From: an uncultured virus (IMG/VR IMGVR_UViG_3300033121_002286)
Lineage: Duplodnaviria > Heunggongvirae > Uroviricota > Caudoviricetes
Reading direction: 5' to 3' (one strand)
Length of the DNA stretch: 64,000 nt
Virus record (IMG/VR): IMGVR_UViG_3300033121_002286
The notes below the pieces were generated by a model. It was not told the DNA's origin, did no database searches, and worked only from the letters and a program-made list of their open reading frames with translations. A program made the position numbers and the translations under genes. Position 1 is the first letter of the stretch; each line of letters starts with the position of its first letter. This document shows, piece after piece, positions 29,270 through 52,988 of the stretch.

Positions 29270-29495
29270 TTAAAATTTTATATTTTAAATAAATAGCACA
29301 AAAAATAAGACCTTAAATGATAGAAATTAGTTTTTTAAGAATCTGAATTTGTCCAATTGTCTGGTTTTCAATTTTTAATATTTCTATGTCTGAATTCTTA
29401 AAAACAATATTTTTTTTCATTTTCATAATGTCTTTCAATCTTTTTTTTGCACTCTCCAATTCCTCTTTTAATATTTTTTTAGTTTTCATGAGGTG

Positions 29496-30210
29496 CTAAT
29501 TTTTATTCTCATTTATTATTTTTTCTAATCTCTCTTGAAATTTACTTTTCTTGACCGGTTTATTTTCTGCATTTTCTTTTAGTTGGTGTTCAACAGTATC
29601 TTTTATTGCCTTTTTGACGAAGTTGTGAAGTGTTCCAGAAATTATAACACCCAACAATCCGGTTAAACCAATTTTTCCAGCAAAAGAAAAATCTCCCCAA
29701 ATCATGAGGAACAGGCTTGCTATCATACATAAGTCTCAGAATCAAATAAAATACAATAGCCTTTTTTTATAAAACCACAATCATCATCATCATTCTCATA
29801 ATCAAAAATATCACCAACTTTTACATATTTTTTTTCATATTTAAAGCCTTGTGTGATGTATTTGTTATTTAATAAGTATTATAAAATCGAAGTCTTACAA
29901 TATCTTTTGGTAAACTATCCAGATAAACATCAAAACCTTCTGACATTTCTCCACGATAAATATCATAGTGTTTACCTTTTTTTAATTTTATTGTTAATTT
30001 TTTTTCTGCCAGCTCTTGAATATAAGATTCGTCAACATTTTTATCGCCAACATTATCAAATAGGTCTTCTATATTTTTAAAATACTCCATTGTTTGCCTG
30101 GGTACATCTACTTGTTCATTGTGACACATTAACAGTATTTTAAGATGTTTTTTATAGTCTTTATCATTATCTGCAATATAAGCCTCTATTGTATTATCCT
30201 CTGTTCCCAT
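29496..30210 (-). other. small hypothetical CDSs (29496..29726 membrane, 29869..30210)
   Basis: Short co-oriented ORFs. Confidence 0.55.
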
Positions 30211-30286
30211 GATTTTGTTTGTTTAATTATTGCTTTTTATTTTAAAATAAACATAAAATTATAAATTATAATTCAAAAAAGCAAAT

Positions 30287-30318
30287 AAAAAAGCCCCATC
30301 AAATTAATGATGAGGCTT
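30287..30318 (-). terminator. intrinsic terminator closing the His/Asn tRNA operon
   Basis: AAGCCTCATC..GATGGGGCTT followed by T tract on minus strand, directly after tRNA-Asn. Confidence 0.85.
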
Positions 30319-30320
30319 TG

Positions 30321-30629
30321 CTCTGAAGGTGGGTATCGAACCCACAACCGTGTGGTTACTGATTTGTGTTGGTTACCCAACTCTCTGGACTATTTCTTTA
30401 TCCACGTCTTTACGTTTGGATAGTGGACGCTAATTCCGGTTATTAAGAAGACTATACTTCTCCGGTAGTCTCTGAACCTTCAATCAGTGTACTGATTGCT
30501 TGGCTTAATGTTGACCTTAATTATTTAATTAAGGCTTTCGTTAAATTCATCCACAGTTTCAATCATTATTTCTAATGAAAGCTGCTAAAAATTACAGCCA
30601 CCAGCTCTGCCTAACCGAGCTCCTTCAGA
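30321..30629 (-). tRNA. tRNA-Asn(GTT) interrupted by a group I intron (exons 30594..30629 and 30321..30358)
   Basis: Acceptor TCTGAAG/CTTCAGA, D stem GCTC/GAGC, T arm GTGGG-TTCGATA-CCCAC; joined loop CTGT|TAA gives anticodon GTT; G73. Confidence 0.88.
30359..30593 (-). mobile_element. group I intron (235 nt, no ORF) at anticodon position 35/36
   Basis: P1 GCUGU/GCAGC with U-G at the 5' splice site; R element AGAGACTAC; S element AAGAAATAGTCC; terminal G. Confidence 0.88.
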
Positions 30630-30701
30630 ATATTTCAATGAACTATTACTTTTCGAGAGTATTACCCCTCTATATAACAACGATTTGTTATATTACTATT
30701 T

Positions 30702-30772
30702 GCCTCCCTGGTGGATTACAATCCCACGACCTTTTGTGCACAAACGCTCTTATGATACTGAGCTACAGGGAA
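30702..30772 (-). ncRNA. tRNA-like RNA lacking a normal anticodon loop
   Basis: Acceptor TTCCCTG/CAGGGAG, TAGCTCAG..GAGC D arm; anticodon arm collapsed to TTTGTGCACAAA; aberrant T loop. Confidence 0.65.
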
Positions 30773-30804
30773 GATGTTTAACTAATTAAAAATCAATTAG
30801 TTAT

Positions 30805-30891
30805 TGGGTGAAAGAAGGGGCTCGAACCCTCATACCTTGCGGTACGTCTTCACAGGACGCTTGGAATTTCCATTTACCAGCTACAATCACC
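30805..30891 (-). tRNA. tRNA-His(GTG), non-canonical with long variable arm
   Basis: G-1/C73, GCGTC-CTGTGAA-GACGT, variable hairpin ACC-GCAA-GGT, GGTTCGAGCC; two acceptor mismatches. Confidence 0.7.
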
Positions 30892-31171
30892 ATATATTTT
30901 ATACCCTTCCAGGTATATGTAATTTTTGTATTTTTTATTTTTCAGAGGTAAAACACCAACCATCTCAAGATTCATTATCCCTATCGGGTATAATTTTGTA
31001 TGACATATCACTCATTATATATCACAAATTGATTTAATGCATGATATATCATTCATTTTTGCCCTTCCAGAAGCTTCGAATCTTCTTTGTGCTATCTTGC
31101 AAGATATTAACACAATCCGGTCCCATAACCGGCAGAAGGTTATTCATATGTCACATTTGTTGTTCTCTCAT

Positions 31172-31510
31172 TTACAACATCAAATTTTTTAACTCTTTAG
31201 TGAGTTGGTTTTTCATTCTATTCCTTGCTGAAGACTTTTCATCCTGTCTTTCTGCCTTTAATTGTCTTCTAATTGATCTAACTTCTTTGGCGTTGTACCA
31301 GTGAGTAAAAGGTTTTTTGTTTTTTATTTTATCATCACCATAAAAGTCATCCTGATTTAAATCGTTTTCAATAAACACCAAGTTGTGTCTTTGACCTGAA
31401 ATTTTATCGGCACTTAACGATAGAGGTGTCATTTTTCTTTTTGGCTTTCTAAAACCATATTTTCCAAATCCCTTTTTGTGGCTTTTTAAGTCTTTATGTG
31501 TTTTACTCAT
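31172..31510 (-). CDS. small highly basic protein in attenuated tRNA operon
   Basis: 112 aa, K/R rich. Confidence 0.7.
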   Translation of the reverse strand: MSKTHKDLKSHKKGFGKYGFRKPKRKMTPLSLSADKISGQRHNLVFIENDLNQDDFYGDDKIKNKKPFTHWYNAKEVRSIRRQLKAERQDEKSSARNRMKNQLTKELKNLML

Positions 31511-31706
31511 GATCTAAATATTTTAAGGTTTCAACTCTCGTTTCTCTTTTAAGCTCTTGTCTATAAGCTTTTTTTAAGGAACGATTTGCATTCTTAACTT
31601 CCAGTCTTTGTTCTGGAGTTTTGCTTCTTCCATCTTCAGCAACTTTAAACTTGCTTCTGACTTTAGATTTTTTATTTCCATCTTTTATATAAGGTCTTAT
31701 TTTCAT
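31503..31706 (-). CDS. small highly basic protein in attenuated tRNA operon
   Basis: Likely start MKIRPY; KNANRSLKKAYRQELKRE. Confidence 0.7.
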   Translation of the reverse strand: MKIRPYIKDGNKKSKVRSKFKVAEDGRSKTPEQRLEVKNANRSLKKAYRQELKRETRVETLKYLDHE

Positions 31707-31753
31707 TTTTCTGTTGGTTTGATTAATTTCCCCCAGAGACCTTGTGTACATTA

Positions 31754-31766
31754 TGTCAAAGAACAT
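31754..31766 (-). promoter_or_regulatory. boxA-like antitermination element
   Basis: ATGTTCTTTGACA immediately after the attenuator terminator; similar CGTTCTTTGA at 48668..48677. Confidence 0.5.
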
Positions 31767-31802
31767 AAAACAAAAAGCCCCGGAGATTTTGTCTCCGAGG
31801 CT
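31767..31802 (-). terminator. attenuator terminator of the His/Asn tRNA operon
   Basis: AGCCTCGGAGA-CAAAA-TCTCCGGGGCT-TTTTGTTTT; 5' arm complementary to TCTCCGA in the leader ORF. Confidence 0.85.
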
Positions 31803-31828
31803 CTATGATTTTATTTGGTTCAGTTTGG

Positions 31829-31897
31829 TCAAATCATATCCATTCGGAGAATTCCTTTTCCGTTATTATTGTGATTATGATTGATTACAGTGAACAT
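31829..31897 (-). CDS. Asn/His-rich leader peptide MFTVINHNHNNNGKGILRMDMI
   Basis: 22-aa ORF between promoter (31995) and terminator; 7 consecutive Asn/His codons. Confidence 0.85.
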   Translation of the reverse strand: MFTVINHNHNNNGKGILRMDMI

Positions 31898-32086
31898 TGT
31901 GTTTTTATTTTTTATACCCTGTGAGTTGCCTGGCACCTCTTGAGTCGTTATCGTTTTATTTACAGTAAATAGTATAATTTTATTTTTCTGAACACAAACA
32001 TACAACAATAATACGCTTTTACAAACATTTTTTAATTTAAAATGTATAATTCATTGATTTGTAGGGTGATAATTTATTGAAAATTG

Positions 32087-34961
32087 TTATTTATCTGTTT
32101 GTGGGTTATAGGGTTCAGGAATGGTGATAGGTTGCCACGCAAGAGGTTCTCCTATAGATATCCATTTGTTTTTGTAAGGATTAAATAATGCCTTTACAGT
32201 AAAAATGCTATCATCTACCTTTACTGTCAAATAATATCTTCCCGATACAATAGGATTTCTCACTTCAACTAGAATCCAACTGGGTTGAGTTTGAGAAACA
32301 CATTCGTTATAAGCTTCTATTACAGCAGATTCATAAAATAAAAAATCATCTTCGTAATCATCTGTGCAGTTGTGTGTTATTTTTCTCCTCAATATTTCTT
32401 TAAATGGGTTTGTTTTCATTTCGGTATTCTTAGATCTTTGGTTAAATTAATGACTATTTTTCAAAAATATTAAGGATCATTTTTATTTCATTAATCTTTG
32501 CATTTGCTCCATGGTTTATACCATTTTCGAACCCTTTATCATAAACCTTTTGTAACACATCTTCAAACCTATAAGGCTCATACAAATTCACCTCTCCTAC
32601 TTGCGGAATGAAAAATTTGTTAGGGTGAATTTTGCTATTCATATGAATTACACCCATTTTTTCTAAATCTTTTTTTGTTATATTTTTCATTTCGGTTGTT
32701 ATTTTTAGCAAACAGAATTTTCTCTAATACATTTTTCTATTGAGTTTTTGTCCCAAAGTTTTTTAACTGGGAAATCTTTTATTTTCTGAGTGTCAATACC
32801 AATAAAAGGCCTATTGTATTTTTTAACGCACTCTTTAATAAAATTAATCATTTCCTTTTTGCTCATATCTTTAGAAACATAAAAGTCATAACCCAAAGTT
32901 GGTGGTCCCCCACATTTAATATCCGCCCAGTCATTATCTTTACAATAAACACTATACAATATAGCTTCGCAAACTTCAATTGTTTTTGTTTTCATATTAT
33001 AATTTATTTAATAAATCTTGTATATCATCCCACTTAACAAACCTACTATTTTTAGTTTTTTGTGTTGTTAAAAAAATATCACTATCATCCTCCTCGTTAA
33101 TTTCAGCGTCACAAGTGTATCTATCCAACTTAGATAATAAATTTTAACATCAGATATGTGTAGCTTTTTTATCTGTGCTTTATTTTATTTTTTCATTAAA
33201 TCTGTGTGTTTAAACTTGTTTATTAAAACAATGTGTTACAATACCCTTGTATTTAATATAAAACCCAGTAATATGATTTAAAACGAATTCTTTTGCTTTT
33301 TGTTCGTTTAATTTTTTATCGCTTTTTTTATTACTAGATTCTCCACTTGCCAAATCTGGGTGTTGAATGTGCACATCTGCTCTAGAAAGTTCAAGATTCA
33401 TATCTTGAATCAACTGTTTTTTCATTTCTCGCTCTGACAATAAAATCTTTAAAATAGCGGGAGTAACACTTTCATCTGTTGCTAGATGTTCAATAATTAA
33501 ACGTTCCTTGGTTTGATCATCATAAATTTTATGATCAACAATTTCTTTGATTTTTTTTTAAATTCATAACTCTGATTTTAATTATTTTACAATATGAGAC
33601 TCAACCCAATCCTTTAGGTCAACATTTAAAAAATGTTGAATTAATTTCTCGTGGTCATGTGTTCTTTGTTCCTCCAAAGAACTCCATTGCCCTATAATAT
33701 ATCGTGTTAAAGATTCGAGATCTATAATAGAAACAGATCCACTATCATTTACGATTTTTATGATTTTGTTTTTCATTTTTCAGTTTATTTGAGTTTAAAG
33801 ATTTTAAAATGTTTATGGCAAATTTCTCAAGCCCTTTATCCTTTAAATACAATTTACCACTTGAATCTTTGTTATTAATAAATTGCACTTGAACATAGGG
33901 TTTATCTTTAGGTTTTTTGCCTATTATGGAAATTGTTGCATCACAACGTGTATTTATTTTCTCCAACTTAAATGTTGTTTTCATTTTTATTATCATTTAA
34001 TTCATGTATTCTTATTGCTGAACCTTGTCCATCAATTCTTTCGAAAACACACTTTTCGTAAACATACATTGAGGATGTAAACGTACAACCAAATTTTTCA
34101 TATTCTTCATCAGTTGCTTCTCTGCCATATTTTCCTGCAAACTTGTATAAGAACCAATACAAATCTTCTGGGGGCTCAATACCTCTATTGTACCAGCGAT
34201 CTCTGTATTTTTTGGATTCATATTTTTCTTCTACTTTTTTCACAGTTTCAAAAAAACGATTACCAACTTTTTTTTGAAATCGTTCCATTTGATTTTCTAG
34301 CAGTACCTCTTTCCTTTCTATGTTTTCAAAAAACTCTTTAGTTTGCCGTTCTCCCTCCTCGGAATTCAGCCACTCCTTCCACTTTTCAAATCTACTTTCT
34401 AAGTCCTGGTTCATGGCTGTTTTTTTTTAATTGTTGTCTATAATAAGCGACTTCTAAGCTGTCTTTTGTTAAATTGATTGCATAAATAGCATAGCCGGTT
34501 TGAGATGAGGAATATGTTTTGTAAAAAACCTCAAACTTCATCTCATCAAAATATTGCACTTGCGTAATATATCCTTCTGACCAATAAGTGGTCGCTTTAG
34601 ATTCCCTTACTTTAATCTCACAATTGCTTAATATAACACAAACTATAAGCATAACAGTTTTTTTCATGGCTGTTTATTTTGGTAAATAATAAATATTTTT
34701 ATGTTGAATAATCTTCACTAAAGATACACAAAAAACGTTTTCTTGAGCTACCTGAAATGCAATTGTTCTTTTTGGCTTTGTTCCTTTTTTGGTGGTTGTT
34801 CTTGAAAGTTTTTTTAAAACTATATCACTTCTCGATTCTTTTTTTATTTTAAAATTTCCTTTAGAATCTCTACTATATGCACTGGCAAAACGGAAATGTG
34901 ACCAGGGAACATACATGTATGTTATTCCGAAAGGTCCACTATATGGATTTGTAAACACCAT
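32087..34961 (-). other. run of small hypothetical CDSs (32087, 32454, 32705, 33210, 33582, 33745, 33968, 34392, 34674)
   Basis: Closely packed co-oriented short ORFs typical of phage early regions. Confidence 0.6.
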
Positions 34962-34992
34962 AGTTTTAAAGGTATTTTATTAACTTAATTTT

Positions 34993-35019
34993 AAACGAAA
35001 AAAGTTCAAAAAAGTTACA
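34993..35019 (-). promoter_or_regulatory. ECF-sigma-type promoter TGTAAC-N16-CGTTT
   Basis: Exact motif heading the small-ORF run. Confidence 0.7.
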
Positions 35020-35077
35020 AAAATTAAAATTTGATATTTTTTGCTATATTTGTAATTATAAATTATAAAATCAACGT

Positions 35078-35926
35078 ATGTACAACGATATTCTCATTTT
35101 TAAAAACAACAGCTTATTAATTGAATATTATAGCAATGAATCAAAGCAAAAAGAGATTGATGAAGTAGATCCTGATTTTTTTTACACACTTTATGATTGC
35201 AAGGTTGTGTTTGATAAAAGCCTAACAGTAGAAGGCTTTTTAATGGCATTAAAACCATTTATAGAAATTATAGAATTTCATTTTGCATCTTATCTGGAAG
35301 GTGTTGAATTAAAGCCCTATTATAAGTTACTAAAAAAGAAGCCCGAAATAATTAAAGGCAATAAAAGTAAAATTGAATATATAGAAATGTATTGGGTTTG
35401 TGAGATTTTTCAATTTTTTGATGAGTTGGAAAACAAACATGTTAGTGAGTTTGAAAAATATGGAAACTATCACGGGGTTTCTGATGATGAAGGGGAGTAT
35501 TTTGGAATGGGACTTACACCTTTAAATAATTGGAAACACTATAATTTAAAACTTAACCCAAAATTAGAATGCTATTTGAATGGAGAGGGTGTCGTTCAAG
35601 CTAAATTGTTTGAGGCTGAGTTACAATGGTCCCTGCACGATGTGATTCGATATTTCTTTTATGAACTAACATTTTTGGGATCTGTTGAAGATAGTGAGGC
35701 TTTTAGAGAGGATATGGATAGAAGAATAGAGGAGGTTAGAAATGGAGGAGCGGAGATTGGTAAAACTTATAATTTAGATGATTTAAAATCAGAATATGAA
35801 TTAGAAACACTCACAAGACAATTAAATTCTGCCGTAGAAAAAGAAGATTATGAAATAGCTCAAAGACTAAAAGAAAAAATTGACAGGCTTAATTCTGAAA
35901 ATAAAAATTCAAAGCCCAAAAGCTGA
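35078..35926 (+). CDS. protein with C-terminal UvrB/UvrC (UVR) motif
   Basis: LNSAVEKEDYEIAQRLKEKI. Confidence 0.75.
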   Translation: MYNDILIFKNNSLLIEYYSNESKQKEIDEVDPDFFYTLYDCKVVFDKSLTVEGFLMALKPFIEIIEFHFASYLEGVELKPYYKLLKKKPEIIKGNKSKIEYIEMYWVCEIFQFFDELENKHVSEFEKYGNYHGVSDDEGEYFGMGLTPLNNWKHYNLKLNPKLECYLNGEGVVQAKLFEAELQWSLHDVIRYFFYELTFLGSVEDSEAFREDMDRRIEEVRNGGAEIGKTYNLDDLKSEYELETLTRQLNSAVEKEDYEIAQRLKEKIDRLNSENKNSKPKS

Positions 35927-36226
35927 ATTGTCAAAATCCTTATCTAACTTAAAAATAATTGGAGTTGGATCTGGACCAATAGGATCAACACCGCAAGTCA
36001 TCATACCTGTAGAACAAATTGTAAAATTTAAATTAACAAATTGAGGTTGATCTTTAGATATTTTAAGAGTTGTGAAAATCAAAGATTTTTCCTCAATATT
36101 TTTTTCAGCATACCTTTCAGACTCAACAGTGTCAAATTCTAAAATAATTTCTTTTGGTGTGTTTGATATATGTTTAATTTGCCTGATCCAATCATGTACA
36201 CTAATTTCACAAATCAATTGATCCAT
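35909..36226 (-). CDS. EF-ERY module fused to tail-sheath-like C-terminal fragment
   Basis: LEFDTVESERY; TLKISKDQPQFVNLNFTICSTG. Confidence 0.55.
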   Translation of the reverse strand: MDQLICEISVHDWIRQIKHISNTPKEIILEFDTVESERYAEKNIEEKSLIFTTLKISKDQPQFVNLNFTICSTGMMTCGVDPIGPDPTPIIFKLDKDFDNSAFGL

Positions 36227-36605
36227 AATAATTTTTTTTTATTTTTTTATTTTTATATCTTCTTGAGATTTTTTTTCTTGGCTTAAAATCTGGTTCACTT
36301 ATCCAAACAGCTGGTGTTACATACGTAGGGATATATGGTGCCCAAACATAACCGGCATCAAACCACGACTTATTTTCTATAAGTCTTTCACAATACCTTT
36401 CTTCATCAATAGAATCAAACTCCAAAAGTAGTTCTGGTACAGATACAGAATAATAAAACAGAGTTCCACCGCTAGAATATATATTCACATGTTGTTTTGG
36501 TTCTTCTGCCATTTGCAGGCCTCCCCAAAACTCAGCTTCTTTTTCTGCTTGTGGAAATTTATAATTGTTTGACTTTTTTATCTTTTTTTTCATGTGAATT
36601 TTCAC
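36207..36605 (-). CDS. EF-ERY module fused to major-capsid (gp23-like) fragment
   Basis: LEFDSIDEERY; FDAGYVWAPYIPTYVTP..PDFKPRKKISRRY. Confidence 0.7.
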   Translation of the reverse strand: MKIHMKKKIKKSNNYKFPQAEKEAEFWGGLQMAEEPKQHVNIYSSGGTLFYYSVSVPELLLEFDSIDEERYCERLIENKSWFDAGYVWAPYIPTYVTPAVWISEPDFKPRKKISRRYKNKKIKKNYYGSIDL

Positions 36606-36817
36606 CTTTCTATATAAAATACTTCTGGTATCTCTAGGTTTGGTATTTTAAGGGATGCGTACATCTTCTTTTTCATTTCATATATAAGATCCTCAATTTC
36701 ACTTCCGGTCATACCATGTATACTAATTTCAAGAATTCTTCTAATATGTCTTCCATCACCATATCTTTCAATATCAACAGGTTCAAATTCAATTAATATT
36801 TTTCTTTGATTACTCAT
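36602..36817 (-). CDS. EF-ERY module fused to portal (gp20-like) fragments
   Basis: IEFEPVDIERY; RRILEISIHGMTGSEIEDLIYEMKKKMYASLKIP. Confidence 0.55.
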   Translation of the reverse strand: MSNQRKILIEFEPVDIERYGDGRHIRRILEISIHGMTGSEIEDLIYEMKKKMYASLKIPNLEIPEVFYIER

Positions 36818-36992
36818 TCCAATTCTAAATTAAATAGACTTCTCATTATCTCTATGTCAATTTCTTCTGCCAACGCCTGTGATAATAAACCAACAAGCGA
36901 CTCTTCAGCATCCCACCATTCAATCCATTTTTACCATATCTTTCAATATCAACAGGTTCAAATTCAAGTAATAAAACACCAGACGCTTTCAT
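36814..36992 (-). pseudogene. EF-ERY module fused to second major-capsid-like fragment; 1-nt frameshift in an A5 run (possible assembly error)
   Basis: LEFEPVDIERYGK / WDAEESLVGLLSQALAEEIDIEIMRSL; corrected frame ends in ATGA overlap with next gene; 35 bp identical between 36758..36792 and 36933..36967. Confidence 0.6.
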
Positions 36993-37205
36993 GATCATAA
37001 ATATAATAATTAAAAATTAGAAAAAAAACACTAAAAATGTTTCCGAACTGGTTAAAAACAAATCTGAGCAAGTAATATTTGCTGGTAAAGTAGGCAGAGT
37101 TAATATTTAATTAAATCTAAAATGTTTAAAAAAACAATAATTTCGAATGTTTTTATAATATAAAATTTACATAAAAAATTTTTAAGATTAGTTTCATATT
37201 TAGTT

Positions 37206-37619
37206 GTGAAAACAAAAAACATGAAAAAGACATTTAGAATAGCAATTATAATAATTTTAACAGCCCTTTCAATTGCCGCAATGGGTGTTCATTTGTTTAG
37301 CAAACCACATCAAGATATAAGCAATGAAACCCCAGCGTTATCAATTAATTCTAGTTTATTGGTGGCAGACTTTGAAGGAGATGAGAATATAGCCAACTCA
37401 AAATACTTGGGGAAAATAATAGAAGTAACTGGCACAATCACTGAAAAAGATAGTGTAAGTATAATATTAAAAGCCACTGATTTGTCCGGTGTTAACTGTG
37501 CTATGGACAAAAATTATAAAATAGATCATTTAAAAGAGGGACAACAAGTTAAAATAAAAGGAATTTGCACCGGGATATTAATGGACGTTGTTTTGGTGGA
37601 TTGTGTTATAGAAAATTAA
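37206..37619 (+). CDS. membrane-anchored OB-fold protein (tRNA_anti-like)
   Basis: TM helix, ANSKYLGKIIEVTGTI, LKEGQQVKIKGICTG. Confidence 0.75.
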   Translation: MKTKNMKKTFRIAIIIILTALSIAAMGVHLFSKPHQDISNETPALSINSSLLVADFEGDENIANSKYLGKIIEVTGTITEKDSVSIILKATDLSGVNCAMDKNYKIDHLKEGQQVKIKGICTGILMDVVLVDCVIEN

Positions 37620-37622
37620 AAA

Positions 37623-38498
37623 TCAAAGTTCTGGAACTTTGTAGTCAGACCAATATTTATATAATCTTTTTGTGATATTTTTTTTCATTATATCCGTTAG
37701 CTGCTTCCAACCTTCAAATCTATATTTGAAATCCTTATAAACTTCATCAAATGGTTTTTTATAAGCTTCAGTATAAGAGTTATCCTTAAATTTATCAAAA
37801 TGAATTTTGTTAATTGCCTGAGTCATCCTAGCGTTAATTTCATGCGGCAACCTCCAATAAGACAAAAACATATCAGCATCTTTTTCTAAGGTTTTTTCTT
37901 CTTTTGAATAGTTTACAAATTTATTCTGAAATTTATTCCATCTTTTGGAGTTTAAATATTTTCCCCCAGATCTGTAATCATCATAGGCGTGTCTTAGTTC
38001 ATGCAATAGTGTATCGTGAAATTTATAATACAATTTAAAATAAATGTCATCAGATTTTGGCTCCATGGGTTTGTCAAAAAGCATGTATTTTCTATTTAAC
38101 ATTAAATAAATATCTAATAGATCATCCATTTCGTAAACCAGGAAAATAGAATGCGGTCTGACATACCAACCTTTACTTGTTGTGGAGTCTGTCATCTTTT
38201 TTTCAGAAGATGTTAAATAAACAGAAATGTTGTTCTCTTCAATCCACCTTTGAAAAACTTCTGGCAATGAACTTAAATCCAAAACCCCTTTATAAAAATT
38301 AAAATCTCCTTCATATAAAACAAACCTTTTCTTACCATCACTTTCTGTTTGAGCATATATTTTGCTCCTTTGCTTCTTAAATAGTTCTTCAGCAATGTAT
38401 TTCAACATTAAAGTTGTGAGATTATTTAGGCTTTTTTCATCCTCTAAACCCTCTTTAATTAAATCCCTTACAAACCTTCTGATCTCATGGAGTTCCAT
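37623..38498 (-). CDS. putative zincin-type HExxH protein with IRRFVRDLIKE leader
   Basis: LLHELRHAYD..Y..PHEINAR; start reassigned to MELHEI after TATTTAT. Confidence 0.65.
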   Translation of the reverse strand: MELHEIRRFVRDLIKEGLEDEKSLNNLTTLMLKYIAEELFKKQRSKIYAQTESDGKKRFVLYEGDFNFYKGVLDLSSLPEVFQRWIEENNISVYLTSSEKKMTDSTTSKGWYVRPHSIFLVYEMDDLLDIYLMLNRKYMLFDKPMEPKSDDIYFKLYYKFHDTLLHELRHAYDDYRSGGKYLNSKRWNKFQNKFVNYSKEEKTLEKDADMFLSYWRLPHEINARMTQAINKIHFDKFKDNSYTEAYKKPFDEVYKDFKYRFEGWKQLTDIMKKNITKRLYKYWSDYKVPEL

Positions 38499-38571
38499 GG
38501 AAATAAATAGCTGTAGAAAAATACTGCGGGAATGATTTTCGAATTTTTCAGCATATTTATTTCGAAAAGAT

Positions 38572-39156
38572 ATGGCACAAAAAATACGCAAATTAGATTC
38601 TCCACAATCTGCTGGTGGCAGAGCAACTGCAATTATTTTAAGAAAAAAAGCATTAGAATCATATTATAGCAACCCATCAATTTGTAAACAATGCTCAAAA
38701 ATAATTACAGTTCAAGACAATCAAAAAGTTCCAGATGTAAGGAGAAAAAAGTTTTGTAGTCAATCATGTTCTGCTTCACATAACAACTCCATAAGAGAAA
38801 GAAAAATAAAATTAAAAGTTTTAAAAGAAAAAAAAATAATTGATAAATTTAATTGTTTAAAGAATATTTCTAAAAAAGAAATGTTCGATAAATGTCCAAA
38901 TTACCAATCAGCCAGAGCGAGGATTCAAAAACACGCAAGATATATATACTCAATTTCAAACAAACCAGAGTGTTGTTCCGAATGTGGATATGATAAACAC
39001 TATGAAGTCTGCCATATAAAACCGGTTTCTAAATTTAGTGATGAATCATTAATAATTGAAAATATAAATAACATTAATAATTTAATAGCGTTTTGCCCAA
39101 CACATCATTGGGAATTTGACAATGGTATTTTAAAAATAAAAACCTCCAATAGATAA
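38572..39156 (+). CDS. HNH endonuclease with N-terminal Zn-binding motif
   Basis: CKQC..FCSQSC; CSECG..EVCHIKP..NLIAFCPTHHWEFD. Confidence 0.85.
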   Translation: MAQKIRKLDSPQSAGGRATAIILRKKALESYYSNPSICKQCSKIITVQDNQKVPDVRRKKFCSQSCSASHNNSIRERKIKLKVLKEKKIIDKFNCLKNISKKEMFDKCPNYQSARARIQKHARYIYSISNKPECCSECGYDKHYEVCHIKPVSKFSDESLIIENINNINNLIAFCPTHHWEFDNGILKIKTSNR

Positions 39157-39182
39157 CTACTACGGAGGTTTTTATTTAATTG

Positions 39183-39265
39183 TAGCGGAAGGAGGACTCG
39201 AACCTCCGAGGCGTTATGCACTAGATTATGAGTCTAGACCGATGACCATCTTCGGACATTCCGCA
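39183..39265 (-). tRNA. tRNA-Met(CAT), 1:72 mismatch, enlarged variable region
   Basis: TGCGGAA/TTCCGCT-A; CTAGA-CTCATAA-TCTAG; GGAGG-TTCGAGT-CCTCC. Confidence 0.85.
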
Positions 39266-39310
39266 ATATAATTGTAAATATACATAAATAATTTTATAAT
39301 GCAATAGATA

Positions 39311-40153
39311 TTAATCATTATAAAAATTATTTTCTTCACGCTCTGCTTTTAAGACAGATTTATTTATGTTAGATCCAGAGGTCACATTGCTTTTAAGTAA
39401 ATTTTTAATTTTAGACAAAAAACTTTCAGCCCCCTTGTTTACAACAGGAAGTTCTTTTATTCTTTTCTCAGAAATTTTTCTAAAGGCTTTATCCAACCTT
39501 TCTCTTTGGTTCATAGTTAAGCTCATTTGAAATGCAAATTTAATGGTTTCTAATTTATAAATATTCAAATTTATTTGATTTTTATCAACGAGTCGTTGTT
39601 AATTGCTTTCCTAACATATCTCATCAGGGTAATGCATTTGATTGAAGCTGGAAACGTAGAAGTCCCAACGTCATCTCTGTCATTCATGTCAACAGGAAAC
39701 ATGTATTGATTACCCGATTCAGTAATAACCTGATAATACAACACACCGGCAATGGCATGTGATAAGTTGGCCATATTGTTGTTTCCAACAATATCTTTCA
39801 GATCGAATTTGTTTTCATTTTGTGTTTTAATTTGTGTCATCGTTTTTGTTTATTAAATTGTTTTTAAGAAATAAAATTACTTCATCAATCATATCAAGTT
39901 TGGTGATTTTTTGAGAATACATGTGGTATCTACCAGTAAAATCAAATACTGTATAAAACAATATAAATCCTCCAGATGGAGTTCTGTTATATTGAACCCA
40001 AATTGTATCTATCCAATCAAATTCAGTTCCAACTAATCTTTCTGGAATTATTGATTGAATATTCCAAACATTATTAAAGTGTTCTCTTTCTCTTTCAGAA
40101 TATTGTGCACTAGGAGAATAGATTGCGTATAGATTTTGACCTCTTGTTCTCAT
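39311..40153 (-). other. three small hypothetical CDSs (39311..39568, 39571..39840, 39827..~40153)
   Basis: Co-oriented ORFs downstream of the Lys tRNAs. Confidence 0.6.
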
Positions 40154-40167
40154 TTTTTTTATTTTTG

Positions 40168-40253
40168 TCCTCCCAGTGGGACTCGAACCCACGATGGACT
40201 TTTACATCACCTGCTTAAGAGGCAGATCCAATCGCCACTATGGAGATGGGAGG
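40168..40253 (-). tRNA. tRNA-Lys(CTT) with long variable arm
   Basis: CCTCCCA/TGGGAGG-A; CTGC-CTCTTAA-GCAG; GTGGG-TTCGAGT-CCCAC; 86 nt. Confidence 0.85.
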
Positions 40254-40259
40254 AAGTTG

Positions 40260-40347
40260 TGTACCTGGTGGGATTCGAACCCACGATGCAACTTACGTTG
40301 GACGGTTTAAAAGACCGATGTATTCGACCAGCTCTACGCACAGATAC
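40260..40347 (-). tRNA. tRNA-Lys(TTT) with long variable arm
   Basis: GTATCTG/CAGGTAC-A; CGGT-CTTTTAA-ACCG; variable hairpin CAAC-GTAA-GTTG; 88 nt. Confidence 0.85.
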
Positions 40348-40354
40348 ATTTTTG

Positions 40355-40438
40355 TACAGATGGTGGGACTCGAACCCACGATGGATTATTAATCTCCGGT
40401 TTAAAAGACCGTTCCAATCGCCACTATGGGACATCTGC
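40355..40438 (-). tRNA. tRNA-Lys(TTT) with long variable arm
   Basis: GCAGATG/CATCTGT-A; CGGT-CTTTTAA-ACCG; variable hairpin GATT-AAT-AATC; 84 nt. Confidence 0.85.
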
Positions 40439-40440
40439 AT

Positions 40441-40470
40441 AAAAAAAGCACATCTTTTTGTGATGTGCTT
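40441..40470 (-). terminator. attenuator terminator directly 5' of the tRNA-Lys cluster
   Basis: AAGCACATC-ACAAAAA-GATGTGCTT-TTTTT; 5' arm complementary to AGATGTGCTTT (40507..40517) in the leader. Confidence 0.85.
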
Positions 40471-40493
40471 CTTTCAGTTTAGACAATATCCTC

Positions 40494-40556
40494 TCAAGAG
40501 GATGCGAAAGCACATCTTCGATGTTTTTGTTTTTTATGTTTAAGAGTAATTGTCAT
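40494..40556 (-). CDS. Lys-rich leader peptide MTITLKHKKQKHRRCAFASS
   Basis: 20-aa ORF with four AAA codons among codons 6-11, ending 23 nt before the terminator. Confidence 0.8.
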   Translation of the reverse strand: MTITLKHKKQKHRRCAFASS

Positions 40557-40557
40557 T

Positions 40558-40803
40558 TTATTTTTTATAATTTAATTTTAAAAATTCTACTATTTCTTTA
40601 CTTGAAACTAAAGTTGCACCTTGGTTTATTGCATCTTTAAATTTACTTTCTTTAACATCATAATGAGGTTGGTTTTTTCCTCTTTTGTTTTGGAACCAGC
40701 ATTTTTTAATTCCAATCGTTTGTGCAAATATATGTAATTCTTCAATACTATCAGCAATCATGTGACTCCAGCCTTTTATTGGTGTATCAATATAAATTGC
40801 CAT
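40558..40803 (-). CDS. DUF4031-like protein
   Basis: IYID..WSHMIADSIEELH.FA..IG..WFQ..PHYDV. Confidence 0.8.
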   Translation of the reverse strand: MAIYIDTPIKGWSHMIADSIEELHIFAQTIGIKKCWFQNKRGKNQPHYDVKESKFKDAINQGATLVSSKEIVEFLKLNYKK

Positions 40804-40955
40804 ATGTTTAAATCCTCTTACCTTTCTTAATCAACATTCTGATATTTTTGATTTTGAAAATTTCCTGGTTCAAATATATTTTTATAGCCATTGTCACCGG
40901 ATACATTTTAAGTAACCACTTTATTGTATAATTTCCTCCATACCCACCTTTGTAT

Positions 40956-41988
40956 TTAAAAATCATTTTTATATTGCCTTTTTCTGTGTTCTTTCCAATT
41001 GTTATTTATTTGCATTCGGTTTCTGTTACATCCTCTTCCGGGAGAACAAATTCCACAACTGCTAAATTTTCTTGTATGACATTTGTTGTATACATATCGA
41101 TTGTTTGTAATCGACATTTCCTCATTAAAAGTCAATTGATTTATTTTTTCTTTTTCCATTTGAATAAAACATTAATTGTTTTATCCAAAATCTTTTTCCT
41201 TTTTCATTTTTAAATTATTTATATTTAGTTTTTCTGTTGTACTTCCAGGTTCTATACATTCTGTATTGCCAACTGGTTATTTCTTTTTTAAGTTTCTTTA
41301 AAGTTCTTTTTCCTCTGGATCTGTGGAAACAAATTCCTTCATCCCAATACGGTTCTACTTTTATTACTGTAATGTGATAAGCCCTTCCGTTTGTTTCGTT
41401 TTTTAGGCTTGATCTTTTTTTGTTTTTTTTGCTCATGGCATATAGGTTTTTAAACCTAATGCTCATCAAATTTCTTTTTCATTTTTATCTTTTTTACATT
41501 AATCGTAATATCCAATTATTTTTACATTTTTAGGATCACACAATATTTTTGGTGCCTTTCCATCTCCTGGCTTACTTAAATAGACTGGTATTTTTCCATT
41601 TATTAGATCGTCAGAGTTTTTTGTATATCCTAAACCATGTTTTGTTTCAACTAATTTTCCTTTCTTCTTTGCCATATTAAATAATATTATTTAATTGTTT
41701 TTGAATGTGTTGTTTTTCCAACAATTCAATATAACCCATGGGTGAAGTTCCAGGAGGAAGAAAACTAATATCTTTAAATCCATTCTCTTTTGTTATAATA
41801 GATTCTGACATGTTTACTCCTGCTGCATTTTTCTTTCCATAATCCCCAGTTTCTAATTTCTTAGTAGCCGGATTTACGTCTCCCCATTGTGTTCTATCCA
41901 GATTATCCGGATGATCTTCCATAACTTCAACATAGAAAGTTTTATTTAAAATTGTGGAGTGTATAGTTGTATATTTTACGTTGCTCAT
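40956..41988 (-). other. small, mostly basic hypothetical CDSs (40956..41159, 41215..~41438, 41677..41988)
   Basis: K/R-rich ORFs, two ending in WK..RK.(Q/K)YK. Confidence 0.6.
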
Positions 41989-42181
41989 TTTTTTAACTTA
42001 TTAATTTATTTATTTCATCTATTCCTTTAGACATAGATTCTGTTACTTGTTTAATTGCATCCAATATAGAAGGTGCATATATTTGATTTTTCCATTCTTC
42101 AAAATTCAAAAGAGATTCTGGATTTTGAATTTTATATTGTTTATATTGACTATCTAATGTCATATCTCAATTTGTTTTTTG

Positions 42182-42266
42182 AGGAGAGTACTGGAATTGA
42201 ACCAGTGCAGGTGTTACCCTGACCTCTGTTTAGCAAACAGGCACATTACCACTCTGTCAACTCTCC
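42182..42266 (-). tRNA. tRNA-Ser(GCT)
   Basis: GGAGAGT/ACTCTCC; CTGT-TTGCTAA-ACAG; long variable arm. Confidence 0.9.
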
Positions 42267-42283
42267 ATTTATTTATTGGAAAT

Positions 42284-42601
42284 TTAATTTTCATCCAAAA
42301 ATTTATTCCAACTTTTAATCAACCCTTCTATATTCTCCTTTCCAACCCCATTTGCAGAATGAACATTTACAATCATTCCTCTGAGATCAAATTGCTTTTC
42401 ATTAATTAACCACTTAACACAATCTATTCCATCTTTTCCTTCTCCGGCCCCAAGATCATGATCAAAGGAGCATTCTACTGGCACTCCGAAGTTTTCAATC
42501 GTTGAGATGAAATCTTCATAACTACGAACTACAACCCAAGGTCCGGGAGTTTTTGGATTTCTTTCGTCATCCAAATATAATTTATAGTTTTTAAATTTCA
42601 T
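42284..42601 (-). CDS. cyclic-phosphate-processing receiver-like domain protein
   Basis: LYLDDERNP, VVRSY, SFDHDLG, HSANGVG. Confidence 0.75.
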   Translation of the reverse strand: MKFKNYKLYLDDERNPKTPGPWVVVRSYEDFISTIENFGVPVECSFDHDLGAGEGKDGIDCVKWLINEKQFDLRGMIVNVHSANGVGKENIEGLIKSWNKFLDEN

Positions 42602-42619
42602 AGTTTAACAATTTATTAG

Positions 42620-42706
42620 AGGAAAGCGAAGGAACCGACCCCTTACCAGCTCATCACTGATACCATAGTTTTCAAGACTATTTGTACTCCATGTACGGCG
42701 CTTTCC
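42620..42706 (-). tRNA. tRNA-Ser(TGA), possible 8/4 acceptor/T-stem fold
   Basis: GGAAAGCG/CGCTTTCC 8 bp; ATAGT-CTTGAAA-ACTAT; T loop GTCGGTT. Confidence 0.8.
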
Positions 42707-42715
42707 CTGTTTTTG

Positions 42716-42789
42716 TGGACCCCCTGGGAATTGAACCCAAACCCGCAGTTTTTCAGACTGCTGTGCACACCAAATTACACCAAAGGTCC
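42716..42789 (-). tRNA. tRNA-Phe(GAA)
   Basis: GGACCTT/GGGGTCC-A; GCAGT-CTGAAAA-ACTGC. Confidence 0.9.
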
Positions 42790-42802
42790 ATAATAAAAGT
42801 TA

Positions 42803-42874
42803 TCTCAGCCAGCACGGTTAGCGCACGTAGCCGCCTTGTTTTTCCCATTGTTTGGCGCATATGGGTACTGAGCA
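42803..42874 (-). ncRNA. unidentified GC-rich structured RNA between tRNA-Met and tRNA-Phe
   Basis: Closing stem CTCAGT/GCTGAG; CCCAT/ATGGG hairpin whose loop CGCC can pair with downstream GGCG. Confidence 0.5.
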
Positions 42875-42883
42875 TCACCTTTG

Positions 42884-42987
42884 TAACGGAGGCGAGAATC
42901 GAACTCGCATTCTCTTTCGAGATCGGGTTTATGAGACCCGGCTGGACTTCATTTGTGTGAAGCTTGCCATTTCCAGTCCACTCCGCA
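42884..42987 (-). tRNA. tRNA-Met(CAT), 104 nt, extra D-loop hairpin and long variable arm
   Basis: TGCGGAG/CTCCGTT-A; CGGGT-CTCATAA-ACCCG; CTTCA-CACAAA-TGAAG insert; TCTC-GAAA-GAGA. Confidence 0.8.
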
Positions 42988-43054
42988 ATATATATTTTAT
43001 GTTGTACTGTTAGTTGGTAATGATGTTGTAGTATTAGTTGGTAATGATGTTGTA

Positions 43055-43087
43055 AACAAAAAAGCCCCGGAGATTATCCAGGGCTTC
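43055..43087 (-). terminator. attenuator terminator of the Met/Phe/Ser tRNA operon
   Basis: AAGCCCTGGA-TAATC-TCCGGGGCTT-TTTT; 5' arm complementary to CCAGGGTTC (43139..43147) in the leader. Confidence 0.85.
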
Positions 43088-43113
43088 TTTTACTTTTTGG
43101 TTTCTTTATATAT

Positions 43114-43221
43114 TCAACTTAGAAACTTATAGGCAATAGAACCCTGGCTCGTCATTTTACTAAATGACGAGAAGAAGCTTTTTGATTTGCTTACTGAGTT
43201 CATATTTGTTACAAGTTGCAT
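43114..43221 (-). CDS. Ser/Phe/Met-rich leader peptide MQLVTNMNSVSKSKSFFSSFSKMTSQGSIAYKFLS
   Basis: 35 aa with 10 Ser, 4 Phe, 3 Met, between promoter (43303) and terminator. Confidence 0.85.
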   Translation of the reverse strand: MQLVTNMNSVSKSKSFFSSFSKMTSQGSIAYKFLS

Positions 43222-43376
43222 TGAAGACTTTTTATTGATTTTGTTAATGTAAATATGCAGAAAAATTTTTTCTGCAGAATTTTTTATTATTTGTTTAGAC
43301 TGCAAACATACATTAGTAATCTGCAGTTTGCAAACATTTTCTAATTTATTTTAATTTAAACACTGTAACTTGTTGA

Positions 43377-43643
43377 TTAGCAAGTTGATATTTTAGAATT
43401 AATAATAAACTCATGCTCTGTAATTATGCATTTTATTTTTTTATCAAACACCGTATCATATTTCATGAATGCTTCTACATGCTCTTTCAATTCAAACCTT
43501 TGTGCTTGTAGAGGATCTCTTGTCCAGGATGGAAATAATTCTATGTTAAAATCATGAGCATAAATTCCTTCTACCGGAGTTCTGTTTAAATAATACCACT
43601 CATGAGTGTCTGTTCTTTCTATAAAATAATAATATTGCTTCAT
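43377..43643 (-). CDS. hypothetical protein
   Basis: 88-aa ORF; WTRDP..A..F, ITEHEF. Confidence 0.6.
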   Translation of the reverse strand: MKQYYYFIERTDTHEWYYLNRTPVEGIYAHDFNIELFPSWTRDPLQAQRFELKEHVEAFMKYDTVFDKKIKCIITEHEFIINSKISTC

Positions 43644-43712
43644 ATGTAGAGAACGCTGAAGCGTGACAAAATCTATAACGTGTTTTTGCTAATTTTTAAT
43701 TTATCTTGAAAT

Positions 43713-45125: not shown

Positions 45126-45136
45126 TAAAATTACTG

Positions 45137-45190
45137 ATATTTATTTAAATATCTATATTTATTTAAATATCTATATTTATTTAAATATCT
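45137..45190 (+). repeat. three exact tandem 18-bp repeats ATATTTATTTAAATATCT
   Basis: Copies at 45137, 45155, 45173, each containing TATTTAT. Confidence 0.9.
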
Positions 45191-45199
45191 AAGTAAAAT

Positions 45200-46786: not shown

Positions 46787-46968
46787 AAACTATTCTTCGA
46801 TAATAGAACAATTATCTTTTCTGACTCTTACAGTTTCTTTCCTTTCTCTTTTGGGATCATAATATTCTCCAATATAAGAGTCTGAATTTTCCTTTAATAC
46901 ATTAACAATTCCATCTTTTGGGACCATCAAAGCATCCCTGTTGTTTTTAAGCTTAACTTTCATTTCTT

Positions 46969-47598: not shown

Positions 47599-47626
47599 CA
47601 GGATCAAAGATACAAATTTTAAAATT

Positions 47627-47663
47627 AAAAAACCCCGAAAAACTAGGTTCTTCAGGGTTTTTT
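47627..47663. terminator. intrinsic terminator closing the large ncRNA transcript
   Basis: AAAAAACCCCGAA..TTCAGGGTTTTTT. Confidence 0.8.
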
Positions 47664-47669
47664 GATGCC

Positions 47670-52961: not shown

Positions 52962-52988
52962 AAACGGTTAAAAGTTATAAAAGTTACA
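52962..52988 (-). promoter_or_regulatory. ECF-sigma-type promoter TGTAAC-N16-CGTTT
   Basis: Exact motif 8 nt upstream of the kptA start. Confidence 0.7.

Follow-up and report, generated by a model that had tools for sequence, protein, structure and literature searches.

Putative leader-peptide attenuators in front of tRNA genes in a large phage genome

The locus of interest lies in a 64,000 nt stretch of DNA from an uncultured virus of the class Caudoviricetes (IMG/VR record IMGVR_UViG_3300033121_002286); "the window" refers to this whole stretch. Three gene clusters on its minus strand, designated U1, U2 and U3, share one anatomy: (i) a short leader open reading frame (ORF) rich in a few amino acids, (ii) a candidate antiterminator strand inside that ORF, (iii) an intrinsic terminator, and (iv) tRNA genes for amino acids enriched in the leader (Table 1). 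An initial annotation of the sequence had pointed out this arrangement, and all three units are present as it claimed, with leaders rich in N/H (U1), K (U2) and S/F/M (U3). Judging from the sequences, we think it likely that ribosome-dependent (leader-peptide) transcription attenuators gate these phage tRNA genes; the tRNAs would then probably be made only when ribosomes read the leader codons slowly.

U1 and U3 are each preceded by a copy of the same promoter-like motif. Behind the U3 terminator follow, in this order, a Met-like tRNA, tRNA-Phe, tRNA-Ser(UGA), an ORF for a cyclic-phosphate-processing receiver protein (cREC), and tRNA-Ser(GCU). U2 has no promoter of its own, and its ATG lies 1 nt past the stop codon of an upstream ORF encoding a DUF4031 protein; U2 is thus nested in the U3 transcription unit, and translation of its leader is possibly coupled to that of DUF4031. 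The three units had initially been described as independent; three are indeed found, but U2 is not fully independent of U3. The U2 leader contains four Lys codons, every one of them AAA.

Table 1. Features of the three units and of their surroundings. Positions are those of the window.
Unit	Feature	Position	Strand	Details
U3	Promoter-like motif	43303..43338	−	AATGTTTGNAAA ... TGTATGTTTG
U3	Perfect 9-bp palindrome	43256-43276		TGCAGAAAA/TTTTCTGCA; between promoter-like motif and leader ATG
U3	Leader ORF	43114..43221	−	35 codons + TGA, ATG at 43221; MQLVTNMNSVSKSKSFFSSFSKMTSQGSIAYKFLS
U3	Antiterminator strand	43138..43147	−	CCAGGGTTCT; inside leader ORF, pairs with terminator 5' arm
U3	Intrinsic terminator	43058..43090	−	AAAGAAGCCCTGGA / TCCGGGGCTTTTTT
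U3	Met(CAT)-like tRNA	42886..42990	−	Non-canonical: D loop ~28 nt, long variable arm; read by eye
U3	tRNA-Phe(GAA)	42715..42789	−	52.2 bits; ARAGORN and Rfam, default
U3	tRNA-Ser(UGA)	42619..42706	−	Non-canonical; relaxed ARAGORN
U3	cREC_REC ORF	42284..42601	−	Inside tRNA array; PF20274, Pfam E 6.9e-26; phrog_1479
U3	tRNA-Ser(GCU)	42181..42266	−	54.4 bits; ARAGORN and Rfam, default
U2	DUF4031 ORF	40558..40803	−	Upstream of U2 leader; Pfam E 5e-21
U2	Leader ORF	40494..40556	−	20 codons + TGA, ATG at 40556; MTITLKHKKQKHRRCAFASS
U2	Antiterminator strand	40507..40516	−	GATGTGCTTT; copies terminator 3' arm
U2	Intrinsic terminator	40440..40476	−	
U2	Three tRNA-Lys (UUU, UUU, CUU)	40167..40438	−	Directly after terminator
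U2	tRNA-Met(CAU)	39182..39265	−	Long variable region; after three small ORFs
U2	Terminator-like hairpin	~39135-39172	−	After tRNA-Met(CAU)
U1	Promoter-like motif	31995..32029	−	Same extended motif as at U3
U1	Leader ORF	31829..31897	−	22 codons + TGA, ATG at 31897; MFTVINHNHNNNGKGILRMDMI
U1	Antiterminator strands	31831..31850	−	TCTCCGA and ATGATTTG; in the predicted terminated fold, ATGATTTG pairs with control codons as well
U1	Intrinsic terminator	31774..31804	−	13 pairs, 7 G-C
U1	Two small basic ORFs	31172..31766	−	87 and 112 aa; no family match; between terminator and tRNAs
U1	tRNA-His(GUG)	30806..30890	−	Non-canonical, expanded D and variable arms; relaxed ARAGORN
U1	tRNA-like gene	30702-30772	−	Between tRNA-His and tRNA-Asn; relaxed ARAGORN
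U1	tRNA-Asn(GUU)	30320..30629	−	235-nt insert after position 37; ARAGORN, introns allowed
U1	Operon-closing terminator	30290..30319	−	12 pairs
	TnpB / IS605 OrfB-type gene	43834-45090	+	OrfB_IS605, Cas12f1-like TNB and HTH domains; ~500 nt from U3 promoter, opposite strand
	GOLLD RNA	47739-48180	−	151 bits (cut-off 150); 4.4 kb upstream of U3 promoter, same strand
	SNF2-family helicase split by intein	52984-55989	−	Intein_splicing, E 8.1e-13

The U1 and U3 leaders stand out from the 733 ATG ORFs of 10–60 codons that the window contains. The U1 leader is the sole case of a 7/7 N/H run and the U3 leader the sole case with at least 10 S/F residues in 13, while a K density of at least 4/6, seen in the U2 leader, occurs in nine of the 733. 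All three leader regions are predicted to fold unusually stably (z-scores of −4.4, −6.6 and −5.6 for U1, U2 and U3), with none of 200 dinucleotide shuffles as stable, and the region 29000–48500 holds 26 terminator-like sites against 8.0 ± 3.4 expected. The 64 kb contain exactly two copies of the extended promoter-like motif, where none would be expected, one ahead of U1 and the other ahead of U3; the U3 copy fits the −33 TTTG / −7 TAnnTTTG arrangement, which we take to be the Bacteroidetes promoter type. Looser patterns show no enrichment in the window: a generic TTTG..TAnnTTTG was found 9 times (6.3 expected), and a −7-like decamer with one mismatch 11 times (8.3 expected).

Leaders were compared with tRNA genes by counting how many residues of each leader correspond to an amino acid carried by tRNAs of the same unit, and by setting this score against all re-pairings of leaders and tRNA sets within the genome. 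In the window, 27 of 74 residues match when relaxed tRNA calls are used and 18 when default calls are used; of the six possible pairings, the true one scores best. Two megaphages, LR745206.1 (634,780 bp) and LR756502.1 (642,428 bp), were reached by blastn of phage records with the tRNA-Lys cluster. These are apparently the Mahaphage genomes of 634 and 642 kb, for which the accessible text of PMC7162821 gives Bacteroidetes as predicted hosts. Their tRNA matches (61 and 50, respectively) lie in blocks, with short leader ORFs preceding eight blocks in LR745206.1 and seven in LR756502.1 (15 units; Table 2). The true pairing matches 82 of 196 residues in LR745206.1 (re-pairing mean 28.6) and 58 of 173 in LR756502.1 (mean 23.9); no other of the 40320 and 5040 possible pairings, respectively, does as well. 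Codon-level scoring gives the same ranks in the window and in both megaphages. The megaphages are related to each other and so are not independent samples; the eight units of one genome differ in amino acid.

Table 2. Leaders and the tRNAs that follow them in two megaphages and in IMG/VR loci.
Source	Leader	tRNAs
LR745206.1 / LR756502.1	..THKNFSKSHKWFS.. / ..KHKHFSKLNKWFS..	His/Phe/Trp (LR756502.1: only Phe and His called)
LR745206.1 / LR756502.1	MKTKLKYKR / MKTKRKYKR	Lys x4 / Lys x3
LR745206.1 only, among counted units	..SKSSSRSSS..	Arg(ACG), Ser(UGA)
LR745206.1 / LR756502.1	..SYESYYEE.. / ..GYTGYEGAYSE..	Glu/Tyr
Megaphage	..ISIAVIGNGAGAI.. (Ile = ATA)	Ile(UAU), Gly, Ala
Megaphage	..MNLNMTMNLTLNVVNITL..	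Asn, Leu, Val, Ile, Thr, Met, Arg
Megaphage	..APVNPQPQDQDP..	Pro/Asp
LR745206.1 / LR756502.1	..QQIQQQQ.. / ..QQQQQQQ..	Gln x3 / Gln x4
IMG/VR	MRTVSKNIKGFKKFFKKNF (with KGFKKFFKK)	Lys, Lys, Phe, Lys, Phe, Lys
IMG/VR	..TYYYGKKSYKK..	Lys/Tyr
IMG/VR	MTKVNTYKKYKNY	Tyr, Lys x3
IMG/VR	MKVMNTTSSSSSSRSS (with SSSSSSRSS)	Ser x2
IMG/VR	..DKKWADE..	Trp, Glu, Asp, Ala, Lys

A wider sample was drawn from IMG/VR, where a search pattern describing long-variable-arm tRNA-Lys(UUU) matches at least 119 stretches. Eighty of these (L015–L094) were searched with a fixed rule: a tRNA had to be preceded, within 200 nt, by a hairpin plus T run, and from the ATG ORFs ending no more than 90 nt upstream of the hairpin the longest was taken. 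The rule yielded 23 terminator–tRNA units. An ORF was present in 20 of these, which were reduced to 17 once near-duplicates had been removed; false calls inside tRNAs were retained. In these 17 units, 151 of 484 residues match, against 106.7 ± 11.1 after shuffling (4 of 100000 shuffles reach 151). A second search, in which part of a His/Phe/Lys/Trp leader was fixed and the tRNAs were left unconstrained, returned 27 IMG/VR stretches: 17 short leaders, nine unrelated long ORFs and one sequence without an ATG. Within 700 nt of 13 of the 17 short leaders lie tRNAs for His, Phe, Lys and Trp (plus Ser once). Across related and unrelated phages, then, leader codon content tracks the downstream anticodons, a comparison that the initial annotation had itself put forward as a check; leaders shift with the tRNA set, from Lys+Phe to Lys+Tyr to Asp/Lys/Trp/Ala/Glu.

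The second element of the proposed switch is a pair of competing helices. Of the 18 units in the window and the megaphages, 16 terminate in a hairpin with a T run. In each of these 16, the core of the terminator 3' arm is present a second time within the 3' portion of the leader ORF, so that this leader segment can pair with the terminator 5' arm. Folding of the sequences truncated ahead of the 3' arm predicts pairing between leader and 5' arm in 16 of the 18. The initial annotation had placed an antiterminator inside each leader, and the duplex energies bear this out: cognate leader–terminator duplexes in the window reach −11.9 (U1), −13.9 (U2) and −15.6 kcal/mol (U3), the best of the six pairings. 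With the other two leaders, the U2 terminator reaches only −2.3 and −10.2 kcal/mol, and the U3 terminator −4.6 and −6.9 kcal/mol. Pairings as good as the true one number 1 of 6 in the window, 28 of 40320 in LR745206.1 and 40 of 5040 in LR756502.1. For the 17 IMG/VR units, the summed duplex energy is −173.4 kcal/mol, versus −115.7 ± 8.7 kcal/mol when shuffled (0 of 100000 as low), and the own leader ranks first for 11 of 17 terminators.

Both helices covary in an alignment of 14 distinct His/Phe/Lys/Trp units, from which duplicates and one terminator-less unit had been removed. The terminator helix is paired in 99.3% of cells, with both-side changes in seven of 11 pairs; the antiterminator helix (leader columns 66–71 with 5'-arm columns 156–161) is paired in 97.6%, with both-side changes in four of six pairs. 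For both, none of 500 shuffles reaches the covariation score, and slid registers are at most 60% paired. The family contains at least five stem variants (e.g., TTCGG/CCGAA in most units and CTTGG/CCAAG in three), in which leader, 5' arm and 3' arm change together. The two mutually exclusive structures that we propose thus have direct comparative support, from a related family rather than from the window's own units. Predicted folds of some of the window's units also contain a candidate for the remaining pairing of a classical attenuator. In the terminated fold of U1, control codons AUC AAU CAU AAU CAC pair with AUGAUUUGA in the last part of the ORF; as long as the terminator lacks its 3' arm, this ORF-end segment and UCUCCGA instead pair with the region of the 5' arm. 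These alternative pairings give U1 predicted strands 1:2, 2:3 and 3:4. The 1:2 pairing appears in minimum free energy folds of U1 (control codons with ATGATTTGA) and U3 (AACTCAG with GGGTTC), and is not evident in those of U2.

A relative of the window allows its units to be compared. Metagenome contig L404 encodes a cREC protein 80% identical to that of the window and carries homologs of U3 and U2. The control region of its U3 leader (MQLINIMNSSSKSSFKSSFKSKMTNQGSIAYKFLN) is rearranged, with a composition still rich in S/F/K/M, and near-identity to the DNA of the window extends from codon 21 to the end of the terminator, with an identical antiterminator strand. The L404 U3 array reads Met, Met, Phe, Ser(GGA), Ser(UGA), cREC, Ser(GCU); L404 has TCT codons in the control region and tRNA-Ser(GGA) in the array, while the window has neither (a single comparison). 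The L404 U2 leader (MTHLVSKQKKPVHRRCDFTSS) keeps the frame, with TAG at the position of the window's TGA, and three tRNA-Lys of ordinary length follow it. No match to the exact U3 switch motif was found in viral contigs or in genome contigs.

Similar changes are seen between strains. Sludge-metagenome contigs join across or replace the payload at 30319–30888, 39609–40437, 40317–40437 and 42885–43055, with the attenuators retained; the joint at 40437 lies directly behind the U2 terminator, and one sludge contig (record 6, run X2) shows no differences over 40437–43269. tRNA cassettes thus seem to be exchanged between strains: the near-identical L404 switch and the strain joints at the payload edges indicate that the attenuator is conserved while its payload is exchanged.

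How might such a unit work? Transcription would start at a phage or Bacteroidota-type promoter (U2 would instead be reached from the upstream gene), and a ribosome would be on the short leader while RNA polymerase nears the terminator. With fast decoding of the codons that the payload tRNAs serve, the ribosome would cover or pass the antiterminator strand, the terminator would form and the tRNA genes would stay silent. With charged cognate tRNA scarce, the ribosome would stall on the control codons, the antiterminator would pair with the terminator 5' arm, and polymerase would read through into the tRNA genes. A tRNA for codon X (the output) would relieve slow decoding of codon X (the input), which would make each unit a negative-feedback controller of decoding capacity. 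The anatomy, the match of leader codons to payload anticodons and, in relatives, the covariation of both helices are observed; the parts of this scheme that we infer are leader translation, read-through driven by stalling via a kinetic switch, closure of the feedback by the tRNA output, and the physiological trigger. In folds with a masked ribosome footprint, pairing of the U1 5' arm with the leader is 0.67 with the ribosome on the His/Asn codons and 0.30 with it at the stop codon; the values for U2 are 0.74 (ribosome at K6, K8 or K9) and 0.03.

Several observations weigh against this scheme. In U3, as in several units of the megaphages, the antiterminator stays unmasked when the ribosome sits at the stop codon (0.78 versus 0.78); the stop lies too far downstream for the mask, such that re-forming of the 1:2 pairing, or timing, would be needed. 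In equilibrium folds of the complete leaders, the terminator has a probability of 0.92–0.98 at any ribosome position, the exceptions being early stalls in U3 and one megaphage unit. With the terminator dominant across almost all states, such masked-ribosome equilibrium folds do not discriminate between them, and any switch must be kinetic—as is the decision in trp attenuation. The match between leader and payload is also partial: own tRNAs serve seven of 21 residues in U1, four of 19 in U2, and 16 of 34 in U3 (Met/Phe/Ser; 15 of 34 at codon level), and the U2 leader contains His and Gln codons, for which no tRNA lies downstream. The tRNAs had been said to follow the terminators, which holds for U2 and U3; in U1, ~880 nt and the two small ORFs intervene before the first tRNA, and internal promoters could drive the tRNAs past the terminator. 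Among the IMG/VR matches listed for a degenerate NHNHNNN motif (80 loci, low-complexity matches dominant), nine lie in a short ORF and none of the nine has a downstream His or Asn tRNA. The MKTKxKYKR mini-ORFs of the megaphages (L003, 4137–4209; L008, 2591–2661) carry a strong hairpin 2 nt past the stop codon, with no T run and no antiterminator strand. A number of the payload tRNAs are non-canonical and only putatively functional. Lastly, an attenuator cannot distinguish tRNA shortage from amino-acid shortage.

This last point leads to an alternative in which the device is the same and its natural signal is host amino-acid starvation, the tRNAs being part of a starvation-induced operon with small proteins. 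The trp and his leader-peptide attenuators respond to charged tRNA, and a sensor of charged tRNA would be triggered by starvation too; moreover, protein genes are present in the operons (two ORFs in U1, and 11 from the U3 terminator to the operon end). However, extra tRNA is no cure for a lack of amino acid, and starvation would therefore not select for a match between leader codons and payload anticodons. That match is seen in the 15 megaphage and 17 IMG/VR units, down to ATA with Ile(UAU) and TCT with Ser(GGA), and we regard starvation as an unlikely natural signal. It is also quite unlikely that the leaders act post-transcriptionally, their translation altering processing or stability of the tRNA precursors (through RNase access or an RNase III-type hairpin) rather than termination. 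The Lys mini-ORF hairpins of the megaphages would suit such a role, and tRNA precursors need 5' processing in any case; yet a T run follows the hairpin in 16 of 18 units, and a processing site alone does not predict a competitor strand that covaries with the 5' arm.

The terminators could, alternatively, be fixed ones that are overcome by a phage processive antiterminator (of the lambda Q/N or put RNA kind), or the terminated leaders could be functional small RNAs, with the ORFs incidental in either case. Lambda PR'-tR' has a promoter-then-terminator layout, and that of the present units resembles it. The accessible text of PMC6614838 describes a terminated attenuator RNA, rnTrpL, that acts in trans, which provides a precedent for the small-RNA version. 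Neither version explains why the leader-to-tRNA matching is the single best of 40320 and 5040 pairings, nor why L404 retains the frame, the stop position and a scrambled-but-kept composition, and we consider both very improbable. Processive antitermination or a trans-acting RNA could nevertheless form an extra layer on an attenuator.

Leader-peptide attenuation of the tRNA genes might additionally serve counter-defence. We put forward, tentatively and as the less probable case, that large phages of several lineages carry a modular homeostat of decoding capacity, with each tRNA block transcribed on demand, and that in the present phage the module may double as a defence against tRNA-cleaving immunity. 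Three features fit this idea: (i) the class-II-like long variable arms of the Lys, Met and His payload, which might escape nucleases, (ii) the cREC gene, which is RNA-repair-associated, within the array, and (iii) the swapping of tRNA payloads between strains behind an unchanged attenuator. For depletion by anticodon nucleases as the trigger, the sole hint is the cREC (cyclic-phosphate RNA-repair-associated) gene. The cREC and DUF4031 ORFs may both be tied to tRNA damage or repair.

The tRNA payload itself is unusual. Default ARAGORN and Rfam searches call six tRNAs in the window (Met, three Lys, Ser(GCU) and Phe), and relaxed ARAGORN adds four: His(GUG), a tRNA-like gene without anticodon, Asn(GUU) with its 235-nt insert, and Ser(UGA). 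All tRNAs on the list of the initial annotation were located, but His, Asn and Ser(UGA) at relaxed settings only, and the Met-like gene by eye; non-canonical tRNAs make up about half of the payload. Relaxed ARAGORN calls the Met-like stretch differently, leaving its Met identity uncertain, and ~85 nt of unassigned, apparently structured sequence separate it from tRNA-Phe (42800–42990 region). A score of 32.7 bits with the tRNA-Sec model (cut-off 47) and the absence of a call by the general tRNA model suggest that the arms of tRNA-Ser(UGA) have an unusual geometry. The acceptor stem of the U1 tRNA-His is similar to that of a megaphage tRNA-His. Its tRNA-like neighbor has acceptor, D and T arms, and an anticodon stem closed by a loop of 2–4 nt, and hence no anticodon. 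The tRNA-Asn insert has no match at E ≤ 1 among Rfam intron families; phage tRNA introns are reported for Lak phages in the accessible text of PMC6784885.

Insertions of 11–13 nt in the variable region give the three tRNA-Lys and tRNA-Met(CAU) class-II-like arms on class-I identities. ARAGORN sizes in the IMG/VR stretches with the long-arm tRNA-Lys(UUU) pattern are 82–93 nt. In 185,579 species genomes the same pattern has only 24 matches, part of which come from archaea and likely reflect an intron; a pattern for tRNA-Lys of normal length has at least 119 matches, from which the ratio of the two forms is not derivable. A literature search for long-variable-arm tRNA-Lys or tRNA-Met of this kind found nothing. 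A DUF4031 homolog lies inside the tRNA array of LR745206.1 (L005, 3504–3704; 36% identity, E 8e-13), and the DUF4031 protein, used as bait for close relatives in IMG/VR, retrieved one distant locus only.

Further observations concern sequences upstream of the leaders. The palindrome between the U3 promoter-like motif and leader, which may be an operator, has two further CTGCAG/GCAG copies just upstream and is found neither in U1 nor in L404. In many megaphage units (L003–L011), a motif of the form ~TTTAATATATAAGAAATA is conserved directly before the leader ATG, with a promoter-like pair AAATTTGGT/AAATTAGGT ... TATATTTGTA further upstream. Many megaphage leaders start M-[KRT]-T-[IMN]-N, and the sequences suggest that the leader modules are paralogs. 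Lys codons are also present in the megaphage His/Phe/Trp leader upstream of the Lys mini-ORF.

Among the small ORFs within or next to the operons, three out of 15 have a Pfam or PHROGs match (cREC, DUF4031 and phrog_20427) and 12 have none. In 29500–44000, no T-box, group I intron or other Rfam family was found at E ≤ 1. ClpB-like and DnaJ-like genes, TnpB, an SNF2 helicase with an intein and a GOLLD RNA are further window content, which fits a large phage. Its host may belong to the Bacteroidota, as suggested by the promoter-like motif and the kinship of the modules with those of Bacteroidetes megaphages. A run search detected the window DNA in activated-sludge and wastewater runs from 12 studies; among the 24 runs listed with the locus, none is an RNA run.

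tRNA genes are generally viewed as constitutive or growth-rate controlled. If the attenuators work as proposed, a codon-specific feedback from the ribosome to tRNA transcription would constitute a new control layer over the translation apparatus, and the amino-acid-sorted blocks of phage tRNA arrays would be explained. The reasons why phages carry tRNAs are debated, and include codon compensation, replacement after host shut-off and escape from anticodon nucleases; the attenuator trigger would report which shortage a phage actually meets, making the purpose of phage tRNAs testable. The leaders would also offer small, naturally occurring devices that sense how fast chosen codons are decoded, and could be used to report tRNA availability. 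The design recurs in two megaphages and many IMG/VR contigs, and is not limited to one genome.

A T5 tRNA reportedly acts against the PARIS defence. More generally, phage tRNA arrays have been proposed to replace host tRNAs cut by defence nucleases (PMC10264068). The arrays there are likewise phage tRNA sets, and the present ones include several tRNA-Lys and an RNA-repair-associated gene; the accessible text of that paper deals with sequence features by which tRNAs escape cleavage, and describes no demand-sensing control of transcription. In the Mahaphage and Lak arrays, too, tRNAs with odd inserts occur, going by the accessible texts of PMC7162821 and PMC6784885, and LR745206.1 and LR756502.1 carry the same leader–attenuator–tRNA modules as the window; the words "leader", "attenuat" and "terminator" are absent from the main texts of both papers. 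The initial annotation knew of no description of attenuation gating phage tRNA genes, and our search agrees: none of leader-peptide attenuation of tRNA genes was found in the full-text literature searched, a scope that excludes subscription journals. What would be new is the control of tRNA genes by leader-peptide attenuation; the mechanism itself is known.

The T-box likewise senses the state of a specific tRNA and controls terminator read-through, but binds uncharged tRNA directly, without translation, whereas the units in the window rest on the proposed translation of a leader. Close in logic is the pheST attenuator of E. coli, a chromosomal system in which the pheM leader controls phenylalanyl-tRNA synthetase. 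There, too, stalling at cognate codons raises a translation component for the same amino acid; the output, however, is the synthetase (and thus charging) for a single amino acid, while here it would be the tRNA itself. Every leader-peptide attenuator known to us controls genes for amino-acid biosynthesis or for aminoacyl-tRNA synthetases. This is a trait of the known examples and not of the attenuation mechanism; the genes behind the window's attenuators are tRNAs, small ORFs without known family, the cREC ORF and the DUF4031 ORF, with no biosynthesis or synthetase gene among them.

In design, the units most resemble the enterobacterial attenuators (hisL, thrL, ilvL, leuL, pheL, trpL), which likewise have a short ORF with repeated control codons, and an antiterminator and a terminator helix that exclude one another; the predicted fold of U1 also contains a candidate 1:2 pairing over the control codons. 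Rfam models reflect this likeness: His_leader (RF00514) aligns full-length with U1 (31.8 bits, cut-off 49; E 0.069) and Thr_leader (RF00506) with U2 (25.5 bits, cut-off 55; E 0.35), both below the family cut-offs, such that the likeness is one of design only. thrL and ilvL are multivalent, as are the S/F/M and N/H leaders described here. The enterobacterial attenuators regulate biosynthetic enzymes, whereas those in the window would regulate tRNA genes, and are borne by phages whose hosts are probably Bacteroidota.

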